The translations under genes were made by a program, and so were the position numbers. From an uncultured Gammaproteobacteria bacterium (lineage in GTDB: Bacteria; Patescibacteriota; Patescibacteriia; UBA11705; DATKZF01), in assembly GCA_964411255.1 (NCBI GenBank), contig CAYPKD010000005.1, positions 109,631-173,630 of the forward strand: a stretch of 64,000 nt of DNA, given 5' to 3'. Positions 1,634 through 29,496 of the stretch are shown one piece after another (position 1 is the first letter of the stretch; each line of letters starts with the position of its first letter). The notes beneath the pieces were generated by a model. It searched no databases and was not told where the DNA came from. It saw only the letters and a list, made by a program, of their open reading frames with translations.

Positions 1634-1649
1634 AATAAATTAAGATTTA

Positions 1650-2278: not shown

Positions 2279-2298
2279 ATTTTTAATTTATTATTTTA

Positions 2299-2327
2299 AT
2301 TTTATCAAAATAAAAATTTAAGGTCAA
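2299..2327 (-). promoter_or_regulatory. Second copy of the sigma70 promoter module (TTGACC-17-TAAAAT) on the minus strand
   Basis: Reverse complement reads TTGACCttaaatttttattttgaTAAAAT; shares about 40 nt with 1568-1612. Confidence 0.5.
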
Positions 2328-2382
2328 AAAAACGAGGCCAGGCCCCGCTTTAAGTTGAAAGTTATAAGTTGATAGTTGAAAG

Positions 2383-4635
2383 TTATTCTTTTTCATCTTT
2401 TTTTTCTTTTTCCGCCTTACCAGTATAAGTACACTCTTTATTTGAACATCTGACCGTTCCTTTTGGCCCCAGCACTAGCTGTGATTCACAGTCTGGGCAT
2501 TTTTTATTAACTGGCTTTGACCAAAAGACCTGTTTGCAGTCTGGATAGCTCGAGCAGCCATAAAAAGTCCTGCCTTTTTTAGATTTTCTTTCTATAATGT
2601 CGCCCTTTTTACAGTCTGGACATTTTACCCCGGTCTTTATTAATATTGACTTAATAGTTTTGCATTCAGGATATTTGCTGCAGCCTAAAAATTTTCCATA
2701 CCGGCCGTGCTTGACCTGCATTGGCGCGCCGCATTTTTCACATTTTTCTTTTGTTAATTCCGGTTCTTCAGTTTCAATCTTCCCATCTTTGCCATCAGTC
2801 GAAACAATATTTTTTGTGTTTTTACAATCAGGATAATTTGAACAGGCAAGGAATTTTCCAAATCTTCCCAGTTTAATCACCATTGGCGATTTGCATTTTT
2901 CGCAAATCTCTTCTGTCTTTTCTTCAGTAAGATCCTTCTTTTGAATTTCTTTTTCTTTTTTTTCTAAATTCTTTTTAAATGGCGTATAAAAATCATCAAT
3001 AAGCGGCTGCCATTTCATTTTGCCTTCGGCAATTTTATCTAAGTCTTCCTCCATATGGGCGGTGAAATCATAATCAACAATTTTTGGGAAATGTTCTACT
3101 AAAAGATCATTGACCAAAAAGGCGATGTCTGTTGGTTTTAATTTTTTTTCTTCTTTGTCCACGTAATTTCTATCCTGTATGGTAGAAATTGTTGGTGCAT
3201 AAGTTGAAGGCCGGCCAATACCGCGCTCTTCTAAAGCTTTAACCAATGTTGCTTCACTATATCTGGCTGGCGGCTGGGTGAAATGCTGGATTGGCTCAAT
3301 CTTTTTTGCATCTACTTTATCTTTTTCTTTTAGCTCTGGTAGAATTGTTTCTTTCGTATCAGTTGAATAAACTTTTTGCCAGCCTAAAAATTTAATTTGT
3401 ACGCCATTAGCCCGGAAAGAATATTTATTTTTTTCATCTTCAATGTCCACTGCTGTCTGGTTCAGTTTGACATCTGACATTTGACTGGCTAAAGAGCGTT
3501 CCCAAATTAATTTATAAAGTTTATATTGATTGTTATTTAAAAATGATTTAATTGATTCTGGAGTTCTGTCAGCCTGAGTAGGACGGATAGCTTCATGAGC
3601 TTCTTGGGCGCCTTTTGTTTTTTTATATATCTTGTCTTGTAGCCCAAGATATTCTTTTCCATATTCTTTTTCAATAAAGTTTTTGGCTCCGCTTTTAAAT
3701 TCTTTTGATAAATTTAAAGAGTCAGTTCTCATGTAAGTAATTAAACCAGTAGATCCTTCTGATCCCAATTCAATACCTTCATAAAGCTGCTGAGCAAGCA
3801 TCATGGTTTGTTTGGCTGAAAAATATAATTTTCTGTTTGATTCTTGCTGCAGAGTTGATGTTTTAAATGGAGTAGGGGCTTTCTTTGATGATTCCTTAAG
3901 TTCTACTTTTGCTATTTTATAATTTTGTTTTTGAAGAGTATCTAAAAGTTTGTTTGCCTGTTTTTCATCTTTGATCTCAAGTTTTTTCAAAGTCTTTTGA
4001 TCGATTTTATGCAACTTAGCCTCAAATTCATTTTTTTCTTTTCCAAAGACAGCTTCAATTGTCCAATATTCATCCTGTTTAAAAGCTTTAATCTCCCGTT
4101 CGCGTTCAACAATTAATCTAACCGCTACCGATTGTACCCGGCCAGCTGATAAGCCTCTGGCCACTTTTTTCCAAAGAAAAGGAGACATTTCATAACCTAC
4201 TAATCTGTCTAAAATTCTTCTTGCCTGCTGAGCATCAACTAAACTAAGATCAATTTCTCTCGGACTTTTTATAGCATTTTCAATTGCTGCTTTGGTAATT
4301 TCATGAAAGGTAATTCTTTTTGACTTTTCTTTTTTAGGTTTTAAAATGTGTTCCAAATGCCAGGCAATGGCTTCGCCTTCACGATCTTCATCAGTTGCGA
4401 AATAGATGACATCTGATTTTTTTGCAGCATCTTTCAGCGCAGTTACGGTTTTTTTAGCCTTTGGCGGAATAACATATTTGGGCTCATAATTTTTCTCAGT
4501 GTCAACTCCCATTTTAGTTTTGGGTAGATCACGGATATGACCAAAAGACGACTGAATGTTATATTCAGCTTTTGGCAAAAATTTTGATATAGTTTTTGCT
4601 TTTGTCGGTGACTCGACTATTACTAAATTTTTCAT
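2383..4635 (-). CDS. topA: DNA topoisomerase I
   Basis: N-terminal TOPRIM (MKNLVIVESPTKAKTI...FATDEDREGE), topoisomerase IA core (catalytic Tyr region ITYMRTDS), multiple C-terminal C4 zinc ribbons (CxxC...CxxC repeated). Confidence 0.95.
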   Translation of the reverse strand: MKNLVIVESPTKAKTISKFLPKAEYNIQSSFGHIRDLPKTKMGVDTEKNYEPKYVIPPKAKKTVTALKDAAKKSDVIYFATDEDREGEAIAWHLEHILKPKKEKSKRITFHEITKAAIENAIKSPREIDLSLVDAQQARRILDRLVGYEMSPFLWKKVARGLSAGRVQSVAVRLIVEREREIKAFKQDEYWTIEAVFGKEKNEFEAKLHKIDQKTLKKLEIKDEKQANKLLDTLQKQNYKIAKVELKESSKKAPTPFKTSTLQQESNRKLYFSAKQTMMLAQQLYEGIELGSEGSTGLITYMRTDSLNLSKEFKSGAKNFIEKEYGKEYLGLQDKIYKKTKGAQEAHEAIRPTQADRTPESIKSFLNNNQYKLYKLIWERSLASQMSDVKLNQTAVDIEDEKNKYSFRANGVQIKFLGWQKVYSTDTKETILPELKEKDKVDAKKIEPIQHFTQPPARYSEATLVKALEERGIGRPSTYAPTISTIQDRNYVDKEEKKLKPTDIAFLVNDLLVEHFPKIVDYDFTAHMEEDLDKIAEGKMKWQPLIDDFYTPFKKNLEKKEKEIQKKDLTEEKTEEICEKCKSPMVIKLGRFGKFLACSNYPDCKNTKNIVSTDGKDGKIETEEPELTKEKCEKCGAPMQVKHGRYGKFLGCSKYPECKTIKSILIKTGVKCPDCKKGDIIERKSKKGRTFYGCSSYPDCKQVFWSKPVNKKCPDCESQLVLGPKGTVRCSNKECTYTGKAEKEKKDEKE

Positions 4636-8209: not shown

Positions 8210-8320
8210 ATTATATTAAGATATCATATATAAAAGTTAAAAGTCAAAAAGCAAAAGGTAGAAATTTGGAGTCCCTGACGGGACGTTTATATATATTTCA
8301 GAAAAGTTAAAAGTAAATAT

Positions 8321-8470
8321 TTGCCTAAAGAAAAGAAATGATTTAAAATATAGATAGATATAGTTCATCATCCATACAGTACTCAACTGTCTGGAAATGC
8401 CTGCTCTTTCCCTGCCCCCATCCCCGTCATGCGCCCATTAGATAATCTCTAGTGGGCGTCCCTTTTTTTA
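8321..8470 (+). ncRNA. Candidate small RNA A (promoter TTGCCT-17-TAAAAT; C-rich body; intrinsic terminator at 8431-8470)
   Basis: Promoter at 8321-8349; hairpin cgccca/tgggcg followed by a T7 run; no ORF; higher local GC than the flanks. Confidence 0.3.
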
Positions 8471-8542
8471 AGTAAAAAGCAAAATTAAAAAGTAAAAATA
8501 TAGAGTCCCAAATGGGACATTTATTTATAAAATGTGTACTAT

Positions 8543-8823
8543 TGACAAGGCTTTGTTATTGTGATATAATATAATTGCTTGGTTCCAAAGACGCTCTGGT
8601 TGTAAAAGCCGAGCAAAAAGGTTTAAACCCAGTTTCTCAGACCCATTTCCGCAAGGAGGTGATGCCATGATTGTGTCTACTTCGTTCGCATCGTGACCGA
8701 GTGCCAGGTACTGGACCTCAGCATGTGCTTATTCAAGCACAAGCAGATTCCTTCAAAAATCCTCAGTAAAAACCTACCATAAAAATAGACCTGTTAGTTC
8801 ATTGCTAGCAGGTCTTGTCTTTT
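8543..8823 (+). ncRNA. Candidate structured ncRNA 1 (about 245 nt), family not identified
   Basis: Consensus promoter TTGACA-16-TGaTATAAT (8543-8570). GC-rich body with multiple hairpins. Terminator agacctg...caggtct plus T-run at 8787-8823. A-rich UP-like element and a gagtccc/gggac hairpin lie upstream. Confidence 0.35.
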
Positions 8824-8992
8824 AAAAAAAGTAAAAAGCAAAATGCAAAAAGTAAAAATAAAGGAGGCTTTCCAAATATTTTGACTTTTTGAAATTTTCT
8901 GTATAAACTATATACGCTAAGAAAAATTGAAATAAAAAAACATCTAATTTTAGCTAAAAAAAAATACGGAAATTCAGAAAAGCCTGAAAATA

Positions 8993-9213
8993 TTGACAAA
9001 AAATTGTTTATGTGATATAATGGAATATTCTGGAGTATAAATTAGGGGGCTTATTTTAGGCAATATGCCCACAATTTTGCTTATCGGCCAGGTCAATGAA
9101 TGCAGCCCCTCCTCTGCAGTCTAGTGCCTGTGTTGGTAAGCAATATTGTGGATGGTATTGCCTCCACAGTTGAATCCCTAATGCCCTCTGGTATCTAGGG
9201 ATTCATTCTTTTT
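8993..9213 (+). ncRNA. Candidate structured ncRNA 2 (about 185 nt), family not identified (6S-like size; possible cis-leader of the downstream gene)
   Basis: Consensus promoter TTGACA-17-TGtgaTATAAT (8993-9021). GC-rich body includes a CCAGGTCA...GCAGCC segment and a CCCCUCCU loop. Terminator gaatcccta...tagggattc plus T-run at 9172-9213. Confidence 0.35.
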
Positions 9214-9258
9214 GGAAGTAATTCGATCTAATATATTTCAAGAACAAGGAGAGAGACG

Positions 9259-9654
9259 ATGAGATTTTTTCTGCCAGCCTTGTTGACAGCTTTGAGCTGT
9301 CTGGCAGGTGCAGGATGCCATGTGCATTCAGCGCCATTGGTTCTCGAGGACCGGCCCGCAGTCTATGTGCGGCCGTACTATCGGCACGGGTATTACAATG
9401 ACAGGTATTATTACCGTCATTACCCTCGCTACCATCACACCACATATGTGCGGCCACATCGGACTGTTGTCCGATCAACGATCGTTCATCGACGACGACC
9501 AGTGGCGGTCGTGCATCGGCCGAGGACTGTAGTCCATCGAAAGGTGGTAGTCAAAAAGAACCGGCCGAGGCCGAAATATCACAAGCCTCGCCCAAGATCT
9601 GGCAAGCCTCGCGGCGTGACCTATCGGGGCAGAGGGCGTCGGACACGACGCTGA
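9259..9654 (+). CDS. Highly basic Arg/Tyr/His/Val-rich secreted (lipo)protein, GC-rich gene
   Basis: SD AAGGAGAGAG; signal peptide MRFFLPALLTALSCLAGAGC; repetitive YYRH/HRRRP composition; local GC well above the genome background. Confidence 0.5.
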   Translation: MRFFLPALLTALSCLAGAGCHVHSAPLVLEDRPAVYVRPYYRHGYYNDRYYYRHYPRYHHTTYVRPHRTVVRSTIVHRRRPVAVVHRPRTVVHRKVVVKKNRPRPKYHKPRPRSGKPRGVTYRGRGRRTRR

Positions 9655-9660
9655 AAAAAA

Positions 9661-9700
9661 AGAGCGCTGATGAAAATTCTTCAGCGCTCTTAAATTTTAA
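9661..9700. terminator. Bidirectional hairpin terminator (agagcgctga...tcagcgctct)
   Basis: 10-bp stem flanked by an A-run (5') and a T-rich tract (3'); on the minus strand it is followed by T8. Confidence 0.5.
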
Positions 9701-9740
9701 ATAAAAGTATTTCTTTGGATATATTTTTAGTCTTTTCAAA

Positions 9741-9889
9741 ACAGGCCAAGGCCTGCGTTAGGCTTTGCAATGTTGGCTTGCGCCAAGTTACTTTTTGGCA
9801 CCAAAAAGTAACCAAAAAGTGCTGGGGGGCTTCAAATGCGAAGCATTGATTACGTTTGATGATCTTGCCAGGGGCAATCAGCCCCCCAG
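9741..9889. repeat. Structured GC-rich non-coding segment in three parts
   Basis: (i) A 47-nt repeat at 9741-9787 is also present at 61111-61157. (ii) A perfect 12-bp hairpin GTTACTTTTTGG/CCAAAAAGTAAC sits at 9787-9812. (iii) A cloverleaf-like element at 9822-9889 is closed by a 9-bp stem ctggggggc/gccccccag and contains internal hairpins gcttc..gaagc and ttgcc..ggcaa. No canonical tRNA T-loop is present. Confidence 0.4.
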
Positions 9890-10005
9890 ACCCCCGATTC
9901 TTTCAAAGATAAAAAGTTCTGATTGTTGAGGCTCTTGTTTCGTAACTTTCGTATTGCCTAGAATAATTGAACCCATCGTCCTATGAGATTATTGGTAATC
10001 GAAAA

Positions 10006-16525: not shown

Positions 16526-16736
16526 AAAAACGGCCTAAGGGCCGTTTTTTTAAAAGCAAAAAGTAAAAAGGAAAAAGCAAAAAATACCCTGAGGATAACT
16601 TAGGCTATTTTTTTTGAATAAATGTCAAAAATATTGTAAAATATGTATTAAGAAGGCATAAGATGGCTTAAGGGGGCAAAGGAGACATAGAGGTAAAGAA
16701 GGCTTCTCCAATGATCAATATTTTTATATATTGAAA

Positions 16737-16791
16737 ATCTTGTATATCTTGTAATCTGTACTATCTTGTATGTAAACCTCGTAATCTTGTA
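16737..16791 (+). promoter_or_regulatory. Array of five direct ATCTTGTA repeats (9-10 bp phasing) about 15-65 bp upstream of the first giant surface-protein gene
   Basis: Copies at 16737, 16746, 16755 (degenerate), 16763 and 16784; a possible -35 TTGAAA at 16731. Confidence 0.4.
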
Positions 16792-16803: not shown

Positions 16804-18690
16804 ATGAACAAAAAGGCAAAAATTTTAAAGACTGCTTTATTTTTAGGTATTGTCATCATGGCAATAGGTTTTTTAGTACCTGATTTATGTTTTGCCCAGG
16901 AAGAAGCGTTAACGGTTGTTGGTGAAGAAGCAGGGGTTGAGACAGGTGAGCCGCTCCCAGTATTGATTGGCAAAATAATCCGAATATTCCTTTCAATTTT
17001 AGGAGTGGTTTTTTTATTGATTTTTATTTATGCTGGCTATCTTTGGATGACAGCTGGCGGTGAGGCAGAAAAAGTTGAAAAAGCAAAAAAATGGATGACC
17101 AATGCAGTGATTGGATTAGTTATTTGTTTGTTTGCTTTTTCCATAGTTACGTTCATTATAAATCGTTTAATGGAAGAAGTATTTGAACAACCTGCGCCAT
17201 CATATTATGCCGGATATGGCAGCGGAGGATCAGGCTATGGCGGTGGCGCTTTGGGAAATGGCGTAATTGAAGACCATTATCCGCCAAGAGATGCGAAGAA
17301 TATGCCGAGAAATGTTTTTATTATGGTTAAATTTTATGAGCCGCTAAAGATTGAGAGCGTAATGGATAATGCAGAATCCTGCGGTGATTTAGGTGATCAA
17401 TGGTGTGGAGGCATAAATTATGCAAACATTCGAATTTTTAAAACTGAAGATGCTGAAGAAGATGGTGCGCCACCATCAGATGTTAATAAATTAGTAACTA
17501 AAGGAGAGATGGGATTAACTGCTGATAAAAAGATATTTTTCTTTAGACCCTTCTGTACACCAGATGATACTTCAGAATGTTTAGGCAGTTCAACCACTGA
17601 GACTGATTATAGTGTTTATTTAACATCAGGCATTCAGGGTGAAGATGGTAGCGGTATTTTTGGAGAATTTAATGATTATGCATGGATTTTTGAAGTTGGC
17701 ACCTATCTTGATTTAACTCCGCCAAAAGTTACCAGTGTATATCCAATGCCGCCTGAAAATGATCCTAATCAGGAATTTTTTGCTAATTCAATAATCCAGA
17801 TTAATTTTAATGAAGCAGTGCTGCCGCCATCAGTTACCACTACTAGCGGTGAATCGCCAGATAAAAATAATTCTATTTACATTGCTTATGATAAAGAGAT
17901 TGAGGAAAAATTTGTGGCCGGTACATTTAATGTTGGTTTAAATCAGTTTAAGACTATTGAATTTGTTCCATTAGAAGATTGTGGAGAGGGAATTACAAAT
18001 TCCTGCGGTGAAACTCCAAAATGTTTGCCTCGAAATTCGGCAATTGAACCATATTTAAAATCAGCCAGTGTAAATAGTGAAGGATTAACTAATTTTCCGT
18101 TCAACGGCTTAGTTGATACAGCCGGAAATTCACTGGATGGAAATGAAGACGGCGTTGCTCAAGGGCCGACTGAAGATGATTATACCTGGCTTTTTAGAAC
18201 AAGCGCAGATTTAGATTTGATACCTCCAGCAATTTTAAATGATGTCAATGCATTACGGCCTACTTTAGCTGAAGGTGAAGTTCAGCCTGATGCACAAGTA
18301 GCTGCATTTTTTACTGAGGGATTGAGTGCTAGCTATGTAAATAGCAAAACAGCAGGCATAACCGGTGATAATTGGGCAAAATGGTATGTTTCTCATTTAC
18401 TAAATGAAATTGTTGATGTTGATGAAAACGGACAGGAATATACTGAAACAAATAATACAGCAATTGACATAACTCATGGTGATTTTGATAAAGCGCCTGA
18501 ACCTCCTCCTGGAGAGCCGGAAAATCCTTTTAAATATTATCCGACTATGACTTCAGCCATTAGAGATTTACAGCAAAATTGTTTTTATCCTGCTTCTGGA
18601 CCTGGCTGTACTGATACTTCAGGCTCTTGCTGCCCTGATGAAGCTGGAACGCAGGGAGCAACGACTGATCCATCTTGCGGTTACTATTAA
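16804..18690 (+). CDS. Large secreted/membrane-anchored surface protein (628 aa), N-terminal module shared with 18717-ORF
   Basis: Signal peptide, then two hydrophobic helices separated by the conserved loop WMTAGGEAEKVEKAKKW (VirB2/TrbC-pilin-like topology), then a Cys-containing extracellular region. Confidence 0.7.
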   Translation: MNKKAKILKTALFLGIVIMAIGFLVPDLCFAQEEALTVVGEEAGVETGEPLPVLIGKIIRIFLSILGVVFLLIFIYAGYLWMTAGGEAEKVEKAKKWMTNAVIGLVICLFAFSIVTFIINRLMEEVFEQPAPSYYAGYGSGGSGYGGGALGNGVIEDHYPPRDAKNMPRNVFIMVKFYEPLKIESVMDNAESCGDLGDQWCGGINYANIRIFKTEDAEEDGAPPSDVNKLVTKGEMGLTADKKIFFFRPFCTPDDTSECLGSSTTETDYSVYLTSGIQGEDGSGIFGEFNDYAWIFEVGTYLDLTPPKVTSVYPMPPENDPNQEFFANSIIQINFNEAVLPPSVTTTSGESPDKNNSIYIAYDKEIEEKFVAGTFNVGLNQFKTIEFVPLEDCGEGITNSCGETPKCLPRNSAIEPYLKSASVNSEGLTNFPFNGLVDTAGNSLDGNEDGVAQGPTEDDYTWLFRTSADLDLIPPAILNDVNALRPTLAEGEVQPDAQVAAFFTEGLSASYVNSKTAGITGDNWAKWYVSHLLNEIVDVDENGQEYTETNNTAIDITHGDFDKAPEPPPGEPENPFKYYPTMTSAIRDLQQNCFYPASGPGCTDTSGSCCPDEAGTQGATTDPSCGYY

Positions 18691-18716
18691 ATAAAAACCA
18701 AAATAAAATATAAATA

Positions 18717-21700
18717 ATGAATTGGTTTAAGAAAAATAAAAAGTTATTGCTAGGGTTATTAATAATAGCTGGTGTTTTTGTTTGTCTTAATTTTGCGTTA
18801 GCACAAGATACAGGTTTAGAAACAGTAGGCGAAGAAGCTGGTATTGAAACAGATGAGGATATTAGAGTACTTATTGCCAGGATTATTCGAATTGTATTTG
18901 GATTTTTAGGCGTGATTGCTTTACTTTTAGTATTGTACGGCGGTTTTGTCTGGATGACAGCTGGCGGTGATCCAGAAAAAGTAAATAAGGCAAAAAAGAT
19001 TTTAATTAATGCCTTTATTGGATTGGCAATAATGCTTTTAGCGTTTTCAATTACTTCGTTTATTATTTCAAGATTGCAGGAAGCAGTTTTAGGTCCTCCA
19101 TCTGAGTTTGAGGACGGTGATGGTTTTGACGGCGATGGCGGTATTCCTTCCGGAGCTTTTAAGGTAAAAAGTATTCAGCCAGTTGGTGCTTTGCCAATTT
19201 ATAATGTGGTAGTAAAAGCATCGTTTAATCAAAAGCTTGACCAGGAAATGGACGATGAATTACTGCAGAATAATTTTGAAGTTTATGATGTGGCAGATGA
19301 TCGGCTTGTATCAGGCAATGTGGTTATCAATAATTACACTTTAAGGTTTACTCCAAACCAGCCATGCCCTGAACCAAATGAGGATTTATTTTGTTTTGAT
19401 AAATTAAAAACGTACAGAGTGACGTTAAAAAGCGGAATCAGAGATGAAACCGGTGATAATCTGTTCTGCGGTCTGGGTAGTGTTTGTTCAGTAGAATTTA
19501 GAACCGGTGAATTAATTGATACTCAAGAGCCATCAGCATATATTACTTCTCCATACAATAATGAAAAGATTTGCAATGAATTTTTTGATGCAATTGCTGA
19601 TGTTGATGATGACAGCGCAATATCAATTGTAAATTTTTATTTAGATGATCAAAATATTGGAACAGCAGCTCCTCCTTCAGACGAGATTGTATCTTCATTT
19701 ACTGCTTTATTAAATTTTGAAGTTCCTTTGGCTGAAGAAGGTCCGCATACTATATATGTTGAAGCTGAAGATATTGATAATAACATGACTCAGTCAAATT
19801 CAAAGACATTTATTGTGCCAATAGCCCATTGCTGCAATGAAGTACAGGATTCTGATGAGACAGGAATAGACTGCGGTGGAGTAGATTGCGGATCATGTAT
19901 GGGAGAACCCTGTGACACTGATGATGACTGCGCTGACGGATTTTGTAGTGATGGAGTCTGCGTCAGCTATCCGACGATTACCAGTTTATCTCATACAGAA
20001 GGAGCGGCTGGAAATCTAATAACAATTTGGGGATCTGGGTTTGGAGGTTATGTAGAGGGACAGAGTAAATTAGAATTTACTGGTCCTGGTGGTACATTAG
20101 TTGAAGGAGGCATTGGATGTGACCCGGCAAGTAGCTGGACAAAAAGTCAGGTAGTGGTAAAAGTGCCTGATGATGCAGTGACCGGTCCATTAAAAATTAC
20201 TAATGCAGCTGGATTTTGGGACGATACTATTAATGATCGAGGCTGGCAGGGAGAGTTTATTTTAAATCCTGATCTTTCTTGGCCAGGTCTTTGTAATGTG
20301 GTAAATGCTGAGGGTGTAAATGAAGGAGAGTTTGAACAGATTGTAACAGCCAATGGAGAAAATTTTAACACTGCCCAGGGAAGAATTTTATTTGGAGAAT
20401 TTGAAGCTCCAATTACTGGTACTTGGTCTGACACTACTGTTACAGGCATTTCCTTGCCAAACATAGTACCAGGCCGGACATTAGTAAATGTAGAGTTAGC
20501 AGCAGAGCAACTAAGCAACCCTGTAGAATTTTATATATTATCAACTGAAAAGCTACCAAATATAGAACAAGTAATCCCAGATAATGGTGGCATAGGTCAA
20601 TATGTAGAATTAATCGGTACTAATTTTGGCAATTCACCAATTCCAGTTTTCTTTTTAAATGAAACTCTGGAAGGCGGTCAAATGATAGCAGATACAGTAT
20701 TTCCAGAAGGTTGCTCTGACAGCTATTGGTCTGATTCAAAAGTAATTATAAAAGTTCCTCCTGGGATTTCTCTGGGGCAATTTTTAATTCAAATGAAATC
20801 TGAAAATGTGGAAAGTAATCAAATGCCGTTTACAGTAACAGACGCACCTCCTGGTCCTGGAATTTGCGGGCTTGATCCTGATAATGGACCAGTCGGTACC
20901 TTTGTTGATGTTTTGGGAGAAGGTTTTGACATAAATGGAACAATACAGTTTTCAGAAAATCAGCCTGGCACAATTTCTGAAGCTTTAGATACTCTTATTC
21001 AAACAAGAGTGCCAGCTTTGGCTGTGTCTGGCCCAGTTCAATATTCTAATGAAGAGGGCGTTAGCAGTAATACACTGAATTTTAATGTTGGCGCTTGTAC
21101 GCCTGAATCCTGCCAGGAGAAATCTATTTTAGAAGGAGAAATATTTGAATGCTGTACCACAGGCGTTTGTCAGCCAGAAGGTGAGTGTGAAGACGTAGTG
21201 GGAGCTGGCGACGCGGAATATGTATGGATGTTCAGCACTGGCAAGCTACCGATCGTGCCAAAAGTAATTGAAGATCCTACTTGCGCTGACAATATTCAGT
21301 CACCATCTCCATGGATTGATTCTGAAGATGCCTGCACCAATGCTTTGATTGGCGCTAGATTTAATATTGATGTTCAAATGGCTAATATGCCATCAAAGAT
21401 AAAAGTTGCCAGATGTAATAATCAAAATGAAGAATGTTCATTTGTAAACTGCCAAAGTATTGATTCAGACTGTTTTGAAGAAACAGTAACCACTCTAAAA
21501 ACTGCTGGTACAGAAAATAATGGATTTTTAAGCAATTATTTTGTGGTTAGTTCATTAAGCGGTAGTCCTTCTCTTCTGCCAAATAGGTGGTATCAGGTTA
21601 CGATTTTAGGTGGTGACAATGGAGTTAAAGGTTATAATAATGTGGCCATGCCTCAGGATTATGTTTGGCGATTTAAAACAAAAGAAACACCGTGTGAAAT

Positions 21701-24700
21701 TGCAGATGTTATTGTTGAACCATCACCAGGGCAGATCGATGAATTTGAAGGCACTGAACTGTTTAATGTATTTGGCAAGGCAGAAAATTGTAATATTTTA
21801 GATGCTGGACTTTTTGACTGGGACTGGCAGCTGACAAATGAAGCAGATAAAGCAAGTCTTCAAACAATAACATATACTGATACAATTAATGTCACTAATG
21901 AACAAGGAGAAGAAGAACAGCAGGAAATTGTCAGAAATGACCAGGCAGAAGCAACTGGCCTTGGAGAAACTGATGATGAAAATCCAGTAGTAGTTGACGC
22001 TGCTACAACAAGCGAAGAAACTGGTGTTACTCAATCAGATGATGCAGAGCTTTTTATTGACTTTACAGATCCTCGGGTGATTGATTATGGTCCAGAATGC
22101 GATACAGCCTGTATTAATGCTGAAATTTGGGCAACTTTTAATACGAAAATGGATGAAAGCACAATGATAATACCAAATCTTCGCGGAAATTTGGAAAATA
22201 TTTTTATATATAAATGTAGCGGTCAAAATTGTTTGGGATTAACCTCAGTAACAGCTAATTTTTTTGGTACTTACCAGGAGGCAACAAAAACAATAAAAAT
22301 TAATATACATGAAGATTCAATTTTTGATTATTTAGAGCCGAATACTTATTATCGAGTTTTAATAAAAGATGATGTCCAGAGCCAAAGCGGCATAAATTTA
22401 ACAGGTCTTAATTTTGATCATGATAATGACGGGTTTAATGATTCTTTTTCCTGGATATTTAGGACCAAAAACGATGATACGCCTTGCGACATGGATAGAG
22501 CTGAAGTATTACCACCTGTTTATGAAACCTCCACTCCGCTTGAGCAATTAAAATATTTAGTTAATGCCCGCGGCGCTCCAGACGAGTGCAATCCGAACGG
22601 ACAGCTGTTAAATCCGTTTGATTTTAACTGGTCTTGGGACAGTACCAAAACTACAGTAGCGGAAATTACCAGTGAAAATATAAGCACTGAATTCCCAGCG
22701 GATACTTGTTCAGCTGAATGCTTGAATTTAGGAAGCAGTGTGATTGAATCAATTTGTGGCAATGGCGGATCACCTGATTATGCAGAGGAATGCGACGATG
22801 GCAATTCAAATGATGGCGATGGCTGCAGCTCAAGATGTTTATTTGAGCCAGTGGCTGATATCAATGAGGGCGGCACTTGCGGCAACGGACAGCTGGATAC
22901 ATTTGAAGAATGCGATTATGCAATTACTGAAGATGCAGATATATGCACTCCTGGATGCCAATTAGCAGGTTCATCAATTAGCGGCTATGATTGCGGTAAT
23001 AATAATGTTGACCCAGGAGAAGATTGTGATGATGGGAATAATTCAGCTGGCGATGGATGTTCCAAAGAATGTTTATGGGAAGGTAGTGATTATACATTTG
23101 ATCAAATACAACAAATTTCTATCTGTGGTAATAATCAAGTAGAAGCTGGAGAAGACTGTGACGATGGTGATTTTGAATCCGGTGATGGCTGTTCTTCAAA
23201 ATGTCTTGCAGAAGGCAGCCAGGCTATTTGCGGCAATGGCGGTGATCCAGAAGTGGGAGAAAATTGCGATGATGGCAATACTGAAGACGGCGACGGTTGC
23301 TCAAGCGTTTGTTTAAATGAAGGTTCAGATTGGGCCTATGGTTCATTCTGCGGTAATGGAATTGAAGAGACTGGCGAAAGCTGCGAAGCAGAAGGCGGAG
23401 ACTATTTTGGATCACCAGAGCAGCTGGTAACAATGACTGAATCTTTACCAGCAGGTACAAATGAAGATACTACAAATATTATCGCTCAGGCAGAAAATTT
23501 TGCTGGTGAAACGAAAGAAGGGACAGGAAATTTAACATTTATCCAGCCTTTTTGTGTAAGTATTGACCCATCATTTACAGAATTACCAGAACCAGGCTCA
23601 ACAGATGTTTGTCGAAATACAGCGATTCAAATAATTGTAAATCAGCCAGTTCAGCAATCAGGCATTAATGAAGCGATAACCCTGGAAGGACCTTGCTCTG
23701 CAGTAGAACAGCCTGAAGCCAGGGTTCCAAATGAATTAAGGCCTATTAAGTGGATTAAAAAAATAGTAAGGAGAATAAAGCAAGTTTTTTCTCCGTCAGC
23801 CAATGCATTTGGGTTGGTGTTTGACTGCACAATAGAAATAGATAAAATAAATGTGGTGGAAAATGATGATCAGACAACCATAACTGTATTTCCAAAGGAT
23901 TTACTTCCGCCATCTGTTTCTATTAGAGTAGATTATTCTGGCCTTAAAAATTTATGCGGAGAATATTTTGGCATAAATAATTTTATCTTTACAACCGGAC
24001 CAGAAGAAAAGATTTGTTTGGTTGATTTTGTCAATGTAAATCCTCCTGATAAATTTATCACTGAAGCAGATTATCAGCAGACGTATCAGGCTGAGGCAAA
24101 GAGTAATGATGCCAGTGCTCCGCTTAATCCGATTCCTGGATTTTATAGCTGGTCATGGTCTTGGAATTTAGAAAGTAATGATTTAGATATACCAGACGAT
24201 ATTCAAATAATTTCATTATCAACTATGGGACCAGAAGGAGAGGAGATTATTCCTGATCAGAAATTATTGGAAACCGGAGGAGCTAATGGTCAGGGTGATA
24301 TGATTGCCACCGCCAGCATTGAAGAAAGCGAATTTGGAGATATAGGAAATGACATTGTTGGCAAAGGTCACTTTACAATTTTTATTTGTGAAAATCCGTG
24401 GTCAGAAACGATGGAAGACGAATTCGCACGTATGCAATGGATATATGATGGTTGGTGGAAGAACTTTGCATTTAATTTTAAGACTTTATATTGCCGTGAT
24501 TATGGTGATCCTGATAAAACTTCAGATGATTTGCCAAATTTAAAGGTTATCAAAGCACCTGAACCAGAGTTTGCGGCAAGTCCTTGGGATGAACCAGATC
24601 CTGTAGTCATAAAAGAATATTTTTTACTTAGAGATGATAATTCACCAGACGCGATTGCGCTTCGGGTTTATACTAATAAAGAAGGTGTTAGCCCAGGACT

Positions 24701-25487
24701 TTGGTATGATTTGCATGTTCCAAATCCGGGCCAGTATGGTGAGTTGAATGTGGATTGCCTGGCGCAAAATGGTGACTTGTATTGCTACCGTGGCATTCAA
24801 GACGGACGAACCGTATATATTTCCGCATCAAATATGCCTGATGCTGGAGTAGATGTGGAATGTGAAGAATCTGATGGAGGGGATTTTGAATGTCTGTCAA
24901 GGTCTCCAAGTGCGTTTTATAATAATATTTTTGTCTTTTCATACAGTGAAAATGCAGATACTCAAACTTTAGAGATGTATAATCAATTATTAAATAATTT
25001 ACGATTTAATATAAATATTCCAGATACTTTGCCAGAAGATAAATTAAGCATTATTCGAGATACGCAAAGAATACATGACATGGTGTATATTCGAGGATTA
25101 GTTAATAGCTATTTTGATCAAAACGGCCGTGTACCTCTCCTCAATACCGATGGTTCATTTATTCCTGGCACATATGTAGGTGGACAGGCAGTAAGCACCT
25201 GGCCTTCATGGGATATAGTGTTTGGTAATATGCTGGGTACTACGATCTTGCCAAAGGATCCACTCAATGATTTTGGACCGCAATGTGCTGCTAATAATTT
25301 TGATGCAGACACCTGCTATAATTCAGAAACCGAACAATTTTTTAATGATTACAGTAAAAAGAAAGCATATGTTTATGATTATAAAATAGCTGAAGGCGGA
25401 TATTTAATATATTTAAATTTAGAAAATGACTTTGAAGCTATGTTCCCGTCTATTTGTACTGATTTAACGGGCGTTGTTTGCAATTAA
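18717..25487 (+). CDS. Giant surface protein (2256 aa) with N-terminal SP plus two-TM module and Cys-rich repeats
   Basis: N-terminus paralogous to the 16804-ORF (WMTAGGDPEKVNKAKK). Seven tandem CGNG...E.CDDGN...DGDGCS..C repeats (Myxococcus-type cysteine-rich repeat) at about 22740-23400. An additional CCNEVQD...CGGVDCGSC module. Confidence 0.8.
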   Translation: MNWFKKNKKLLLGLLIIAGVFVCLNFALAQDTGLETVGEEAGIETDEDIRVLIARIIRIVFGFLGVIALLLVLYGGFVWMTAGGDPEKVNKAKKILINAFIGLAIMLLAFSITSFIISRLQEAVLGPPSEFEDGDGFDGDGGIPSGAFKVKSIQPVGALPIYNVVVKASFNQKLDQEMDDELLQNNFEVYDVADDRLVSGNVVINNYTLRFTPNQPCPEPNEDLFCFDKLKTYRVTLKSGIRDETGDNLFCGLGSVCSVEFRTGELIDTQEPSAYITSPYNNEKICNEFFDAIADVDDDSAISIVNFYLDDQNIGTAAPPSDEIVSSFTALLNFEVPLAEEGPHTIYVEAEDIDNNMTQSNSKTFIVPIAHCCNEVQDSDETGIDCGGVDCGSCMGEPCDTDDDCADGFCSDGVCVSYPTITSLSHTEGAAGNLITIWGSGFGGYVEGQSKLEFTGPGGTLVEGGIGCDPASSWTKSQVVVKVPDDAVTGPLKITNAAGFWDDTINDRGWQGEFILNPDLSWPGLCNVVNAEGVNEGEFEQIVTANGENFNTAQGRILFGEFEAPITGTWSDTTVTGISLPNIVPGRTLVNVELAAEQLSNPVEFYILSTEKLPNIEQVIPDNGGIGQYVELIGTNFGNSPIPVFFLNETLEGGQMIADTVFPEGCSDSYWSDSKVIIKVPPGISLGQFLIQMKSENVESNQMPFTVTDAPPGPGICGLDPDNGPVGTFVDVLGEGFDINGTIQFSENQPGTISEALDTLIQTRVPALAVSGPVQYSNEEGVSSNTLNFNVGACTPESCQEKSILEGEIFECCTTGVCQPEGECEDVVGAGDAEYVWMFSTGKLPIVPKVIEDPTCADNIQSPSPWIDSEDACTNALIGARFNIDVQMANMPSKIKVARCNNQNEECSFVNCQSIDSDCFEETVTTLKTAGTENNGFLSNYFVVSSLSGSPSLLPNRWYQVTILGGDNGVKGYNNVAMPQDYVWRFKTKETPCEIADVIVEPSPGQIDEFEGTELFNVFGKAENCNILDAGLFDWDWQLTNEADKASLQTITYTDTINVTNEQGEEEQQEIVRNDQAEATGLGETDDENPVVVDAATTSEETGVTQSDDAELFIDFTDPRVIDYGPECDTACINAEIWATFNTKMDESTMIIPNLRGNLENIFIYKCSGQNCLGLTSVTANFFGTYQEATKTIKINIHEDSIFDYLEPNTYYRVLIKDDVQSQSGINLTGLNFDHDNDGFNDSFSWIFRTKNDDTPCDMDRAEVLPPVYETSTPLEQLKYLVNARGAPDECNPNGQLLNPFDFNWSWDSTKTTVAEITSENISTEFPADTCSAECLNLGSSVIESICGNGGSPDYAEECDDGNSNDGDGCSSRCLFEPVADINEGGTCGNGQLDTFEECDYAITEDADICTPGCQLAGSSISGYDCGNNNVDPGEDCDDGNNSAGDGCSKECLWEGSDYTFDQIQQISICGNNQVEAGEDCDDGDFESGDGCSSKCLAEGSQAICGNGGDPEVGENCDDGNTEDGDGCSSVCLNEGSDWAYGSFCGNGIEETGESCEAEGGDYFGSPEQLVTMTESLPAGTNEDTTNIIAQAENFAGETKEGTGNLTFIQPFCVSIDPSFTELPEPGSTDVCRNTAIQIIVNQPVQQSGINEAITLEGPCSAVEQPEARVPNELRPIKWIKKIVRRIKQVFSPSANAFGLVFDCTIEIDKINVVENDDQTTITVFPKDLLPPSVSIRVDYSGLKNLCGEYFGINNFIFTTGPEEKICLVDFVNVNPPDKFITEADYQQTYQAEAKSNDASAPLNPIPGFYSWSWSWNLESNDLDIPDDIQIISLSTMGPEGEEIIPDQKLLETGGANGQGDMIATASIEESEFGDIGNDIVGKGHFTIFICENPWSETMEDEFARMQWIYDGWWKNFAFNFKTLYCRDYGDPDKTSDDLPNLKVIKAPEPEFAASPWDEPDPVVIKEYFLLRDDNSPDAIALRVYTNKEGVSPGLWYDLHVPNPGQYGELNVDCLAQNGDLYCYRGIQDGRTVYISASNMPDAGVDVECEESDGGDFECLSRSPSAFYNNIFVFSYSENADTQTLEMYNQLLNNLRFNINIPDTLPEDKLSIIRDTQRIHDMVYIRGLVNSYFDQNGRVPLLNTDGSFIPGTYVGGQAVSTWPSWDIVFGNMLGTTILPKDPLNDFGPQCAANNFDADTCYNSETEQFFNDYSKKKAYVYDYKIAEGGYLIYLNLENDFEAMFPSICTDLTGVVCN

Positions 25488-25522: not shown

Positions 25523-26248
25523 ATGCCAAATGAAACAAACAGTCCTACTCCAGGACAAACTCCACCAACTCCGCCAGCATCAGATGAACCAAAAGATATT
25601 TTCGCTGAAGTGGAAGGAACGGCACCAGCTCCAAGCGCAGCCGCCGGACCGGCTCCTGTCCCTACTCCTGCACAGCCAAAGGCTGCGTCAAAAAGGCCTC
25701 AGGTCACTGGTGCACCTGGTGGTCCGTCAGGAGGTAAAAAAGTAGTAGTTATTGTTTTAATGATCGTCTTTATTGCAATTGTTGCAATTGTCGGGTACTT
25801 TATATATAGTCGCTATCTAGCTGTTTCAGATGAACCAGCAGCGCCAACCATACCTACTGTACCGACAAATACGGCTGTTCCAATTAATACTACCCCAGAA
25901 GTTCCTGAAATACCTGTAAATGAAGAGCCAGAATTGCCTGTTGTTCCCAAAGAGGCAACGAAAGAGGTTACTCCAACTCCAGGAGAAGATATGGATACTG
26001 ATAATGATCGATTATTAGATGAAGAAGAAACGCGCCTAGGCACTGATCCGACTGAAATTGATTCTGACAATGATAAATTGACTGATTATGAAGAAGTAAA
26101 AATTTATGAAACTGATCCTTTGGATCCTGACTCCGATGATGATGGTTTTCAGGATGGCGAAGAGGTTGCAGGTGGTTATGATCCGTCAAATCCGGCCAAA
26201 GGCGCCAGATTACCCGGATCTCCAATCCCAGATGGAATAATTGAATAA
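25523..26248 (+). CDS. Single-pass membrane protein with Pro-rich N-terminus and thrombospondin-type-3 (Ca-binding, dockerin-like) repeats
   Basis: TM helix VVVIVLMIVFIAIVAIVGYFIY; repeats DTDNDRLLDEEE, DSDNDKLTDYEE, DPLDPDSDDDGFQDGEEV, then ...GYDPSNP. Confidence 0.6.
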   Translation: MPNETNSPTPGQTPPTPPASDEPKDIFAEVEGTAPAPSAAAGPAPVPTPAQPKAASKRPQVTGAPGGPSGGKKVVVIVLMIVFIAIVAIVGYFIYSRYLAVSDEPAAPTIPTVPTNTAVPINTTPEVPEIPVNEEPELPVVPKEATKEVTPTPGEDMDTDNDRLLDEEETRLGTDPTEIDSDNDKLTDYEEVKIYETDPLDPDSDDDGFQDGEEVAGGYDPSNPAKGARLPGSPIPDGIIE

Positions 26249-26330
26249 ATAATATATATTAAAATAATAAGCGTACAAATACGACATAATGTTTTATTTT
26301 TTCAAAAATTAATTATTAGTGAATCGTGAT

Positions 26331-27395
26331 ATGGTAAATGACAATAAGGAGGAAGAAGTTCGAGTGATGCCTAAGTCTGACTTTGGGCATACTGACAAAA
26401 CAAAAGAATCAACAAAGCCTGCGTCTCAGCAGGCAACAAGTAGGCCATCAGCAGCAATGCCACCAGCATCAGACAGGGCAGGAGAGCCAATGAGTACAAA
26501 ACCAAAAAGATCCTGGATGAGGGCAGTGATTATAATTTTTGTTATTGCACTTATAGCTGCGTCAGGTTATTTTCTTTATAGTGCTTATAAGCCTGCAGAA
26601 CCTCAATCTCCTTTAGTGCCAACAGAGCCGGACGAAATTGAGGATGAAGAACCAAAAGCATTGCCTCCTACTACACCAGAAGAAGTTGCTACCCCAGAAG
26701 CGACAGTTGCTACTTCAGAAGCTGTGCCAGAGGTTGCCACTGAAGATGTGTTTCCAGACATCGTCACCGGTTCAAAAGATACATTTAAGTATGGTGATAT
26801 CTCAGAATTATCACTTGACATGATATCTTCCCAGGATAGTGATGAGGATGGACTAACTGATATAGAAGAGCGGCTTTTTGACACTGAGCAGCAAAATAAT
26901 GATACGGATGACGACTCCTATTTTGACGGAGCTGAAGTAGTAAATTTATATGATCCAAGAGCAGGTGAAGGAGCTTCACTTCAGGAAAGCGCTTTAGTGA
27001 AAACATTTGTTAATGAGAATTATAAATATACCATAATGTACCCAGAATCCTGGTTTGCAAAAGGCACTGACAAGTCAAATCTTGAGGTTGTGTTCACTTC
27101 AGAAAATAATGAATTTGTTTCTGTTTGGATTGAGGAAAATCCATCAAATCTTTCCCTAAAGGATTGGTATAATAAGCAGGCGCCAAATGTTGAACCGCAA
27201 GACCTGACTGAATTTATCAATAAGAACGGAATTGTCGGATTAAAAAGCCCTGATGGTTTTACCATTTATTTCAGTAAAGACGAGTTTGTCTACATTATTC
27301 ATTATAATATTGGATTAAAAGATAAGGCAGATTATCCGAGCGTATATCAAATGATGATTGAGAGTTTTAATTATGTTGTAAATCAAAGAGGATGA
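26331..27395 (+). CDS. Single-pass membrane protein with TSP3-like repeats and C-terminal globular domain (paralog of 25523 and 46183)
   Basis: TM AVIIIFVIALIAASGYFLY; repeats DSDEDGLTDIEE, DTDDDSYFDGAEV...YDPRAG. Start is ambiguous (26319 GTG, 26331 ATG, or 26367 ATG after SD AAGGAGG). Confidence 0.55.
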   Translation: MVNDNKEEEVRVMPKSDFGHTDKTKESTKPASQQATSRPSAAMPPASDRAGEPMSTKPKRSWMRAVIIIFVIALIAASGYFLYSAYKPAEPQSPLVPTEPDEIEDEEPKALPPTTPEEVATPEATVATSEAVPEVATEDVFPDIVTGSKDTFKYGDISELSLDMISSQDSDEDGLTDIEERLFDTEQQNNDTDDDSYFDGAEVVNLYDPRAGEGASLQESALVKTFVNENYKYTIMYPESWFAKGTDKSNLEVVFTSENNEFVSVWIEENPSNLSLKDWYNKQAPNVEPQDLTEFINKNGIVGLKSPDGFTIYFSKDEFVYIIHYNIGLKDKADYPSVYQMMIESFNYVVNQRG

Positions 27396-28248: not shown

Positions 28249-29496
28249 ATGGCAGATAATTTAATAGCAGGAATAGACATAGGAACAGCAAATATCCGAG
28301 TAGTCGTTGCTCAGATAGCAAAAGTAGCTGACGAAGAACAGCTAAATATTATTGGCGTGATTGAAGTGCCATCTCAGGGCGTAAGTAAAGGCTCGATTGT
28401 TAGCATTGAAGACGCTGTTTCGAGTATTTCAAATGCATTGGAAGGAACTGAACGCATGATCGGCTTGCCTGTTGACAATGCTTGGGTTGGAATTTCAGGC
28501 GTGCATATTAATTCACAAGAAAGTAATGGAGTGATTGCTATTTCCCGGACAAGTGGAGAGATTCAGGATGATGACGTAGAGCGGGTGATAGAGGCCGCCA
28601 GATCAGTGGCAGCGCCGGTGAATTATGAAGTTTTGCATGTTATTCCAAAATCTTTTACAATAGATAATCAATCAGGTGTAAAAGATCCGATTGGCATGTC
28701 AGGCATCCGATTAGAGGTCACCACGCAGGTGATTAGAGGCTTGTCTTCACATATAAAGAACCTGACAAAAAGTATTTACCGCACAGGCCTGGATATAAAC
28801 GACATTATTTTATCATCTTTAGCAGCTTCAGAATCTGTGTTATCAGTTCGGCAAAAAGAATTAGGCGTTGCCTTGGTAGATATTGGTGCTTCAACTACAA
28901 ATGTAATTGTTTTTGAGGAAGGAGATGTTTTGCATACAGCTGTTATCCCAATTGGGTCAGATCACATAACTTCTGATATTGCTATTGGTCTGCAAACCTC
29001 AATTGAAATAGCAGAAAGAGTAAAATTAGAGCATGGCAGCTGTAGCCCAAAGGATTTTGATAAAAAAGACATAGTAAATTTGCAGGATTTAGGTGGAGAC
29101 AATCAGGATTTTTCAAGAAAATACATTGCAGAGATAATAGAAGCCAGAGTTGATGAAATCTTTGAAAAAATTGATGCGGAGTTGCAAAAAATTAATAGGA
29201 GTGGTTTACTACCTGCAGGGATAGTATTGGTGGGTAGTGGAGCCAAATTAGCAAGCATTGTAGATGTTGGTAAGAAAAAGACAATGCTACCTGTATCATT
29301 AGGTAAAATACAAACATTTACAACTGCTGTGGATAACGTTCATGACATTTCTTTTGCCACTGCATTAGGCCTGGTTTTATGGGGCTACCAGATGGGACAG
29401 GAAGATAATAAGCAATTTGGATTTACAAATAAATTTGGTACAATAAAGGAATCAGCAGGCCGAATAAAAAATTGGTTCAAGTCATTAATATCTTAG
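28249..29496 (+). CDS. ftsA: Cell division protein FtsA
   Basis: Actin-like ATPase N-terminus IAGIDIGTANIRVVVAQ; DIGASTTNV; SHSP-like 1C insertion; ftsA-ftsZ synteny. Confidence 0.95.
   Translation: MADNLIAGIDIGTANIRVVVAQIAKVADEEQLNIIGVIEVPSQGVSKGSIVSIEDAVSSISNALEGTERMIGLPVDNAWVGISGVHINSQESNGVIAISRTSGEIQDDDVERVIEAARSVAAPVNYEVLHVIPKSFTIDNQSGVKDPIGMSGIRLEVTTQVIRGLSSHIKNLTKSIYRTGLDINDIILSSLAASESVLSVRQKELGVALVDIGASTTNVIVFEEGDVLHTAVIPIGSDHITSDIAIGLQTSIEIAERVKLEHGSCSPKDFDKKDIVNLQDLGGDNQDFSRKYIAEIIEARVDEIFEKIDAELQKINRSGLLPAGIVLVGSGAKLASIVDVGKKKTMLPVSLGKIQTFTTAVDNVHDISFATALGLVLWGYQMGQEDNKQFGFTNKFGTIKESAGRIKNWFKSLIS

Follow-up and report, generated by a model that had tools for sequence, protein, structure and literature searches.

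Within a 64,000-nucleotide stretch of contig CAYPKD010000005.1 (assembly GCA_964411255.1, positions 109,631 to 173,630; hereafter the window), derived from an uncultured bacterium that GTDB places in the Patescibacteriota, two adjacent open reading frames (ORFs) of 628 and 2256 residues, ORF1 and ORF2, join an N-terminal two-helix hairpin of the type IV secretion system (T4SS) pilin family PF18895 to long ectodomains that contain immunoglobulin (Ig)-like domains. The pair holds a near-invariant position among housekeeping genes in related genomes, and its two hairpins have co-evolved within them. We propose that ORF1 and ORF2 probably function as adhesin-bearing 'modular pilins' or as an envelope scaffold.

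A PF18895 hairpin joined to long ectodomains

Both ORFs lie on the forward strand, 26 nt apart, and both open with the signal peptide and two-helix hairpin that a sequence-only reading of the window had described; hydropathy profiles and AlphaFold2 (AF2) models built with family alignments agree with that layout, and the ORF sizes and boundaries then given are confirmed (Table 1). Each protein has exactly three hydrophobic segments, all within its first 125 residues: a leader, which in ORF1 consists of a basic N-terminus, a hydrophobic core and small residues at -3 and -1, and, past it, two transmembrane (TM) helices, not one. AF2 places the three helices at residues 3-24, 51-83 and 88-126 of ORF1 and at residues 8-27, 49-80 and 86-125 of ORF2, the hairpin of the latter having a predicted local distance difference test (pLDDT) score of 90-96. 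An acidic stretch of 25 residues separates the leader from helix 1 (net charge -6 in ORF1 and -7 in ORF2), the loop between the helices is basic (+1 and +2, with flanks of -5 to -6 in ORF1), and an acidic, Gly-rich linker follows helix 2 in both proteins. By the positive-inside rule, this charge pattern predicts an N-out, loop-in, C-out topology, in which all sequence past helix 2 would be extracytoplasmic. That portion amounts to about 500 residues in ORF1 and 2130 in ORF2, which sets both apart from small stand-alone pilins. Both proteins are acidic (D+E 14-16%, as against K+R 5-6%), and cysteines make up 14 of the 628 residues of ORF1 and 79 of the 2256 of ORF2. Homology to an unrelated kind of anchor was not found: neither protein has a hydrophobic segment beyond the first 125 residues that could form a C-terminal anchor of the LPXTG type, and the leaders are classical Sec signals with an AxA-type site, the N_methyl family of type IV pilins (PF07963) being unmatched at E<=1.

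The two N-terminal modules, which the sequence-only reading had called near-identical, share 54% of their residues in a gap-free alignment 114 residues long (E 2e-32), a likeness well outside chance but short of that description. The loop motif that it had put forward, WMTAGG[DE]xEKVxKAKK, is present exactly in both (sequences in Table 1), and a six-frame translation of the window contains the module in no other ORF. Outside the module, the next best high-scoring segment pair between the proteins reaches only E 0.086, and the similarity they share there is that of Big_5-type Ig domains; the description of the two as tandem giant paralogs is therefore accurate for the anchor and not along the length of the proteins, and at 628 residues ORF1 is not giant.

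The likeness to VirB2/TrbC pilins, first suggested on topology, extends to sequence. PF18895 (T4SS_pilin; gathering score 26.6 bits) matches full-length ORF1 at 48.5 bits and ORF2 at 39.5 bits, the excised modules at 52.6 and 44.8 bits (E-values overall 1e-10 to 5e-14), and all 27 modules of a family alignment. A profile of these 27 modules aligns over 73 columns (hhalign probability 97.5%, E 7e-12) with a 151-residue pilin-like protein of a Pontibacillus plasmid, which ends 8 residues past helix 2 and has a VirB4-like ATPase of the CD1110 family encoded 4 kb downstream. The TrbC/VirB2 family itself (PF04956; gathering score 27.9 bits), proposed earlier as a check, is matched end to end by the ORF1 module (model positions 1-98 of 98) at a score just under the cut-off (27.7 bits); the full proteins score 21.5 (ORF1) and 14.0 bits (ORF2), and 7 of the 27 aligned modules reach the family at E<=0.01. 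Scores for the Mbov_0395 family of pilin-like conjugal transfer proteins (NCBIfam NF045849) were 34.2 and 29.4 bits, below its cut-off of 40. With hhalign, Agrobacterium VirB2 aligned in register but weakly (7%), and the helices of F-plasmid TraA did not align. These comparisons place the module securely in PF18895, the pilin-like family of monoderms and Patescibacteria, with at most a remote relation to diderm VirB2. Profile searches of PDB sequences with the module and with the ORF1 family gave only spurious repeat-protein ('Pizza') matches or none, and tblastn of the module against 72,556 plasmids found no close relatives, only weak partial matches (E 1e-3 to 0.8) that fell mostly in genes annotated 'pilin' on haloarchaeal megaplasmids and in one Firmicute pilin-like gene.

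A HMMER search of 1.84 billion cluster representatives with the 135-residue ORF2 module returned 37,278 matches at E<=1e-3 and 8,151 at E<=1e-10. Among the best 150 matches, 147 were newly fetched and classified: 93 carry a single N-terminal module, 17 of these being shorter than 200 residues and 38 longer than 1500 (up to 4806), and the other 54 carry 2-13 modules. The candidacy of the closest 'small' database pilins as true short pilins was rejected in part, several (P0209, for example) proving to be contig-end fragments of long proteins. The multi-module proteins, or 'polypilins' (P0121, of 606 residues; P0122, of 1775; and 52 others), consist of 2-13 consecutive PF18895 hairpins (up to 17 by HMMER counts), an arrangement which implies that hairpins pack side by side and of which no description was found in the literature searched.

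Past the hairpin, the AF2 model of ORF1 (mean pLDDT 81.5) shows a disordered linker at residues 125-143 (pLDDT <50), followed by consecutive beta-sandwich domains with pLDDT values above 90 over most of residues 150-596. A Big_5 domain is recognised in this region by hmmscan of a fragment (27 bits), and Foldseek pairs the model with the BIg domains of LdtMt2 (1e-6) and the S-layer protein SbsC (1e-5), as well as with E. coli alpha-2-macroglobulin, the ice adhesin MpIBP, SiiE and Sap, at identities of only about 8-12%; the likeness to S-layer proteins (SbsC, Sap) is confined to Ig-like domains. The ORF2 ectodomain begins with a Big_5-like domain (19.2 bits, sub-threshold) and a Big_7 domain (24.6 bits; cut-off 24.1), and continues through IPT/TIG domains and a further Big_5 domain to cysteine-rich repeats of the Myxococcus type, which the sequence-only reading had recognised in this protein. 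TIGR02232 (cut-off 20.8 bits) matches them at 80.8 bits, in ORF2 only; in place of the seven repeats then counted it marks five stretches, and CGN[GN] starts number six (residues 1347, 1388, 1426, 1470, 1505 and 1545), the last repeat being truncated. The conserved C-terminal region matches no Pfam family above threshold, and the last 657 residues have no sequence relative in the PDB. Pfam scans found no SLH or other wall-binding domain in either protein.

Conservation of the pair and its neighbourhood

A search with ORF1 returned 255 proteins, the best 120 of which are all 535-735 residues long and 31-60% identical to it over 80-100% of their length; both PF18895 and PF13205 are annotated on 119 of these 120, and PF13205 alone on the remaining one (P0070). 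Invariant residues run along the whole length of the family alignment; among the cysteines, C401 and C593 are invariant, and C393, C407 and C609 are invariant or nearly so. The corresponding search with ORF2 gave 170 proteins, mostly of 2100-3940 residues (orthologue lengths overall span 1500-3900), and a single PF18895 module stands at the extreme N-terminus of every one of the 110 newly fetched homologues. Collinearity with ORF2 holds for the 119 giant homologues compared (1700-3940 residues), at some 30% identity between residue 1 and roughly residue 2200; many of these proteins are longer at the C-terminus, and many also carry VWA, LamG, malectin or sialidase-lectin modules, a set typical of ligand-binding proteins. 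Public annotations of the family read 'hypothetical', 'Ig-like domain-containing', 'IPT/TIG domain-containing', 'cysteine-rich repeat protein' or 'pilin'.

In a scan of one genome per GTDB species, at least 503 genomes encode a relative of ORF1. The named records among them are Patescibacteria, namely Falkowbacteria, Uhrbacteria, Komeilibacteria and 'Parcubacteria', which we take to fall in GTDB class ABY1. Many of the species-representative metagenome-assembled genomes that carry the operon (L007, L009, L012-L017 and others) are titled 'uncultured Gammaproteobacteria bacterium', and one 'Candidatus Kapaibacterium'; these titles look like mislabels, since the gene content is that of a Patescibacteria-specific operon.

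We compared gene order at 80 related loci (29-56% identity), wherever the contig reaches far enough. The order is near-invariant: signal peptidase I (SPase I), HisRS, S21 and YqeY are followed by the pilin-Ig protein of about 600 residues, the giant pilin, one or two TSP3 membrane proteins, YbeY, DgkA, FtsA and FtsZ, with Pth, Der and LytR on the opposite strand ahead of SPase I. Both long genes are present in 70 of the 80 loci. Inserted between them in four loci is a complete short pilin gene of 123-165 residues, 37-56% identical to the flanking modules. A homologue of the 241-residue TSP3 protein lies directly 3' of the giant gene in those loci that extend that far, and the 358-residue protein, which has no Pfam match, also keeps its position, the end of its gene overlapping the start of ybeY. 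At three loci (L007, L012 and L032) two successive ORFs, of about 1650-1710 and 830-900 residues, stand in place of the giant gene, and the first of them has no detectable pilin module in L012 and L032; the gene may truly be split there, or a frameshift or faulty assembly may be the cause.

Across the same loci, the hairpin modules have a median identity of 44-47% to those of the window proteins, on a par with the cytoplasmic housekeeping neighbours Der, YqeY and S21 (40-44%) and well above the ectodomains (28-32%). The loop consensus, Y-[AG]-G-x-x-W-M-T-x-G-G...K-A-K, is nearly invariant, with G76, M80, T81 and G84 (ORF2 numbering) invariant, and the Gly-rich linker keeps its composition and not its sequence in the alignment. 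Within a single genome the two modules share more of their residues (mean identity 0.578, n=71) than do orthologues taken from separate genomes (0.49 and 0.51) or pairs that set one type against the other across genomes (0.478). As the source of this likeness, recent gene conversion at the two 5' ends was rejected, because the two modules of the window are only about 60% identical in DNA, with a single identical stretch of 20 nt over WMTAGG. Module conservation and within-genome likeness together indicate a shared, specific constraint, and the two hairpins may touch each other or a common lineage-specific partner.

A terminator-like hairpin, a second terminator-like site (16588-16604) and a promoter-like site precede ORF1, and the gaps downstream are short, AT-rich and terminator-free, the next terminator-like site on the + strand (28325-28344) lying after dgkA; this arrangement suggests that ORF1 to dgkA form one transcript. 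Four exact copies of ATCTTGTA are clustered within 55 nt (16737-16791, +), 13-67 nt before the ORF1 start codon; one copy lies elsewhere in the window, where chance would predict 3 over the whole length. Since the repeats were not found upstream of ORF1 orthologues at 81 loci, the array is lineage-specific, and its role may be to bind a regulator or to act as a leader element.

Table 1. Features of the gene pair and of its surroundings (window coordinates, except for the inserted short pilin genes, whose coordinates refer to their own loci).
Feature	Position	Strand	Description
Terminator-like hairpin (intrinsic type)	16530-16551	+	ACGGCC-TAAG-GGCCGT then T run; ends yqeY and marks the 5' boundary of the unit
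Sigma-70-like promoter candidate	16614-16642	+	TTGAAT, 17 nt, TAAAAT; 9/12 consensus matches; about 160 nt before ORF1
ORF1, 628 residues	16804-18690	+	Signal peptide, pilin hairpin, Gly-rich linker, three-part Ig-like ectodomain, Cys-containing tail
ORF1 signal peptide, residues 1-31	16804-16896	+	Predicted signal peptidase I site between CFA and QEE
ORF1 PF18895 T4SS_pilin hairpin, residues 49-118	16948-17157	+	Helix 1, loop WMTAGGEAEKVEKAKK (17044-17091), helix 2
ORF1 beta-rich region (predicted extracellular), residues 150-596	17251-18591	+	Tandem bacterial Ig-like domains; Big_5 at residues 304-359
ORF2, 2256 residues	18717-25487	+	Signal peptide, pilin hairpin, linker, giant acidic Cys-rich ectodomain
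ORF2 signal peptide, residues 1-29	18717-18803	+	Predicted site between ALA and QDT; AF2 helix 8-27
ORF2 PF18895 hairpin, residues 47-116	18855-19064	+	Loop WMTAGGDPEKVNKAKK at 18951-18998
ORF2 Big_5-like (residues ~148-249) and Big_7 (residues ~272-347) Ig domains	19158-19757	+	hmmscan of fragments
ORF2 three IPT/TIG domains, residues ~417-790	19965-21086	+	PF01833, 53.6 bits, 3 stretches (fragment of residues 400-830)
ORF2 Big_5 Ig-like domain, residues 1117-1229	22065-22403	+	45.4 bits in full protein, 38.7 in fragment
ORF2 cysteine-rich acidic repeats (TIGR02232/DUF4215 type), residues 1347-1565	22755-23411	+	Five complete, one truncated
ORF2 C-terminal region, residues ~1704-2256	23826-25484	+	Conserved; 43-46% identical to C-termini of closest homologues
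Single-pass membrane protein, 241 residues	25523-26248	+	PF18884, 44.5 bits; predicted extracellular TSP3 (Ca-binding type) repeats; TM residues 66-102
Single-pass membrane protein, 358 residues	26319-27395	+	DxDxDG-type acidic repeats, C-terminal domain; TM residues 63-90
Short pilin genes inserted between the long genes	L051 11890-12276; L060 11893-12261; L069 8753-9247; L070 7071-7439		

Candidate roles of the gene pair

The reading we rank first, at slightly better than even odds, is that ORF1 and ORF2 are adhesin-bearing modular pilins or hairpin-docked surface fibrils. Its parts differ in strength: display at the cell surface on the hairpin anchor is very likely, a role of the hairpin beyond anchoring, through a specific partner, is somewhat probable, and physical incorporation into a T4SS pilus seems doubtful. 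Both proteins would be exported through the Sec pathway and cut by signal peptidase I, after CFA in ORF1 and after ALA in ORF2. Helices 1 and 2 would enter the membrane together as a hairpin that leaves the acidic N-terminus outside and the basic loop in the cytoplasm, and helix 2 would act as a start-transfer sequence, so that the entire C-terminal part would be threaded outside, there to fold as a chain of Ig-like, IPT/TIG and Cys-rich repeat domains stabilised by disulfides. The two hairpins would bind one another as well as short PF18895 pilins, and a pilin-processing T4SS with its genes at another site in the genome would handle them; the long ectodomains would thereby be displayed at or on the T4SS apparatus as adhesin-bearing 'modular pilins' and would contact the surface of a host or partner cell, aided by the two Ca-binding TSP3 membrane proteins encoded downstream.

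We favour a pilin role because of the conservation of the loop, the co-evolution of the modules within genomes, the occasional short pilins in the operon and the prevalence of T4SSs in the phylum, in which VirB4 has been reported for 2,417 of 3,035 assemblies and VirB2-like arrays for 383 (Quinonero-Coronel et al., 2025; PMC12102498). In a bolder form of the proposal, which we hold only tentatively, the PF18895 hairpin would be a general polymerisation or docking module, and ORF1 and ORF2 would be VirB2-class 'modular T4SS pilins' with giant adhesin grafts, inserted by the T4SS at the tip or base of a pilus or conduit; they would then be the missing host-recognition adhesins of that T4SS, kept as a core gene pair throughout a whole class of bacteria of the candidate phyla radiation (CPR). 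An adhesin of the PrgB type was not found across 3,035 Patescibacteria genomes (PMC12102498).

Several observations weigh against the pilin reading. Known VirB2-type pilins measure some 70-150 residues and end just past helix 2, and on steric grounds a homopolymeric filament of the VirB2 type could not accommodate a further 2130 residues on every subunit; at most a sparse or terminal incorporation is conceivable. The alignment with VirB2 is weak and with TraA absent, as described above, and Foldseek found no significant match in the PDB for the AF2 model of the module (best E 4, to photosystem subunits and ATP synthase c); a helical hairpin is too simple a fold for such a search. A VirB4-like ORF was found neither in the window nor at the 80 loci by phmmer with a single Firmicute VirB4 query, a search of limited reach; no T4SS genes lie within 10 kb of the pair at those loci, where the neighbours are housekeeping genes, and the other ORFs scanned in the window have functions unrelated to T4SSs or no assigned family. 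A pilus has not been demonstrated for any PF18895 protein in the literature searched. Finally, the strict synteny and collinearity seen in hundreds of species would be expected of a structural housekeeping protein no less than of a host-specific adhesin.

This last point leads to the rival that we rank second and consider possible though clearly less likely, in which the two proteins make up a structural layer or scaffold of the envelope, either an S-layer-like coat or wall-spanning fibrils, and the pilin-derived hairpin only anchors it, independently of any T4SS. The genomic setting suits such a layer: synteny between lepB/hisS/rpsU/yqeY and ybeY/dgkA/ftsA/ftsZ, with lytR nearby, is near-universal at the 80 loci, the ORF1 family occurs in at least 503 species representatives, and T4SS genes were not found nearby in the window or at those loci; the short pilin gene inserted between the pair in some genomes does not. 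The ectodomains point both ways. Big_5 is an SbsA-type Ig domain, the Foldseek matches include the S-layer proteins SbsC and Sap, the composition is acidic and of the Ca-binding type, with TSP3 partners encoded downstream, and the whole 2256-residue protein is collinearly conserved; set against this, orthologue length varies from 1500 to 3900 residues, the lectin and VWA modules are typical of adhesins, and the SLH or other wall-binding domain that could hold such a layer in place was not found. The hairpin itself argues for more than a plain anchor, which needs neither cytoplasmic loop conservation at the level of housekeeping proteins nor co-evolving copies.

Ranked third, and improbable in our view, is a release of the ectodomains, with the hairpin serving as an export or tethering pro-region and the remainder being cut in the Gly-rich linker and shed in soluble or host-directed form. 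A disordered Gly-rich linker does follow helix 2 in both families, but it preserves composition only and not sequence, and although C-terminal processing occurs in some conjugative pilins (RP4 TrbC, for example), neither a protease gene nor a conserved cleavage motif was identified in the operon, and Ig arrays are typical of cell-attached stalks. That the module is an ordinary duplicated leader whose two hydrophobic helices resemble pilins by compositional coincidence is effectively refuted, for while such hairpins do draw many weak Pfam matches (DctQ, Yip1, MatE and others) and Foldseek cannot discriminate the fold, the PF18895 E-values, the match of all 27 modules, the hhalign score against a pilin-like protein within a T4SS cluster, the tens of thousands of cluster representatives that match the module and the invariance of polar loop residues all speak against chance.

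Among known systems, the Patescibacteria pilin arrays (SEML1_0006-0019 of Southlakia epibionticum, for example) are of the same phylum and share PF18895 and the signal peptide-hairpin layout; they too consist of tandem divergent copies, 2-11 genes of at most 54% identity (PMC12102498), where the window has two copies at 54%. VirB2-like pilins and pilin arrays of Patescibacteria are already published (PMC12102498; PMC12857230; PMC10633639), and Southlakia, the one system in which this has been tested, cannot do without its array (Wang et al., 2023; PMC10633639). These published pilins are treated as small and lie mostly near virB4, whereas here ectodomains of 500 and 2130 residues are fused to the hairpin and the pair sits in a housekeeping neighbourhood with no T4SS genes found within 10 kb. 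The array papers mention no long fusions, and the 2025 survey counted such long proteins as 'VirB2', without length information (PMC12102498); elsewhere, PF18895 was noted to dominate structure clusters specific to freshwater (10.1101/2025.04.23.650224), and an earlier survey of CPR families treated type IV pilins only (10.1101/335083). We found no description of PF18895 fused to long ectodomains, or of the conserved gene pair, in the literature searched, which included few subscription journals and in which absence is not proof. Given that VirB2-like Patescibacteria pilins are known, what is new by this measure is the fusion to giant ectodomains and the conserved pair, a moderately surprising combination.

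The Mbov_0395 family (NF045849) and the Pontibacillus pilin offer a homologous hairpin, including a ...Y-S-G-F-x-Y-I-T-S-x-G-D-P-x-K...A-K loop, in a monoderm context; in contrast to the window proteins, which are below the family cut-off, the Pontibacillus pilin is 151 residues long and lies within a T4SS cluster. The diderm TrbC/VirB2 pilins (PF04956; Agrobacterium VirB2 and F TraA) resemble ORF1 and ORF2 in a long leader, two helices, a short basic loop and the N-out/C-out topology predicted here, although the relation is remote at best; these pilins are about 70 residues long after processing and polymerise with lipid into a pilus, and to our knowledge they never bear large C-terminal domains. 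A parallel in design comes from modular type IV pilins such as Streptococcus sanguinis PilB and PilC, onto which vWA or lectin modules are grafted: here, too, a pilin polymerisation module is combined with a C-terminal adhesion graft, and some ORF2 orthologues carry VWA or LamG domains. Type IV pilins belong, however, to an unrelated pilin class, marked by a class III signal peptide and one N-terminal helix; PF07963 is unmatched in ORF1 and ORF2, and the grafts in these two are 10-50 times larger. Giant Ig adhesins and S-layer proteins (SiiE, MpIBP, SbsC/SbsA and Sap) have in common with the pair their strings of Ig domains, an acidic, Ca-binding-type composition and the Foldseek matches, and differ in being anchored by type I secretion system retention modules, SLH domains or wall polymers, with the low identities given above.

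A sizeable part of bacterial diversity belongs to the Patescibacteria, whose life is spent attached to other cells, and what is known of how they recognise and hold their hosts comes mainly from a few cultured Saccharibacteria. The pair is a concrete candidate for host contact, being a syntenic operon, present in at least 503 species-level genomes, that joins a pilin module to ectodomains of 500-3,800 residues with many Ig, lectin and VWA modules. If the hairpins enter T4SS assembly, the proteins would be the first VirB2-class pilins to serve as carriers of adhesion domains, paralleling the modular type IV pilins; if they do not, a pilin fold would have been recruited as the anchor of main envelope proteins, and counts of 'VirB2 pilins' in CPR genomes would, for a hairpin that only anchors, need to be read with protein length in mind. 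In either case the family provides defined targets for cryo-electron tomography, metaproteomics and structure prediction, and makes the function of pilin-like proteins in Patescibacteria more amenable to testing.

Other features of the window

A third giant ORF, of 3210 residues (47060-56692, +), encodes an acidic protein with one N-terminal hydrophobic segment, 104 cysteines and no Pfam match at E<=0.01. Upstream of it lies a gene for a 264-residue single-pass membrane protein (46183-46977, +) with TSP3/EF-hand-like DxDxDG repeats. The pairing of a TSP3 membrane protein with a giant protein thus recurs in the window, the TSP3 gene preceding the 3210-residue ORF but following ORF2 (25523-27395).

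No Rfam family reached its gathering score anywhere in the window, which therefore yielded no tRNA either. G+C content rises to 0.40 at 8210-10000, compared with about 0.33-0.35 around it; a stretch of about 1 kb there (8210-9258) has no ORF of at least 70 residues and is followed by a Tyr/Arg/His-rich, lipoprotein-like ORF of 131 residues (9259-9654). Further large envelope or secreted proteins of the window are a 719-residue DUF3160 protein (39643-41802, +; 735 bits) and a 768-residue secreted protein (58638-60944, +) with an N-terminal Peptidase_C39_2 domain.

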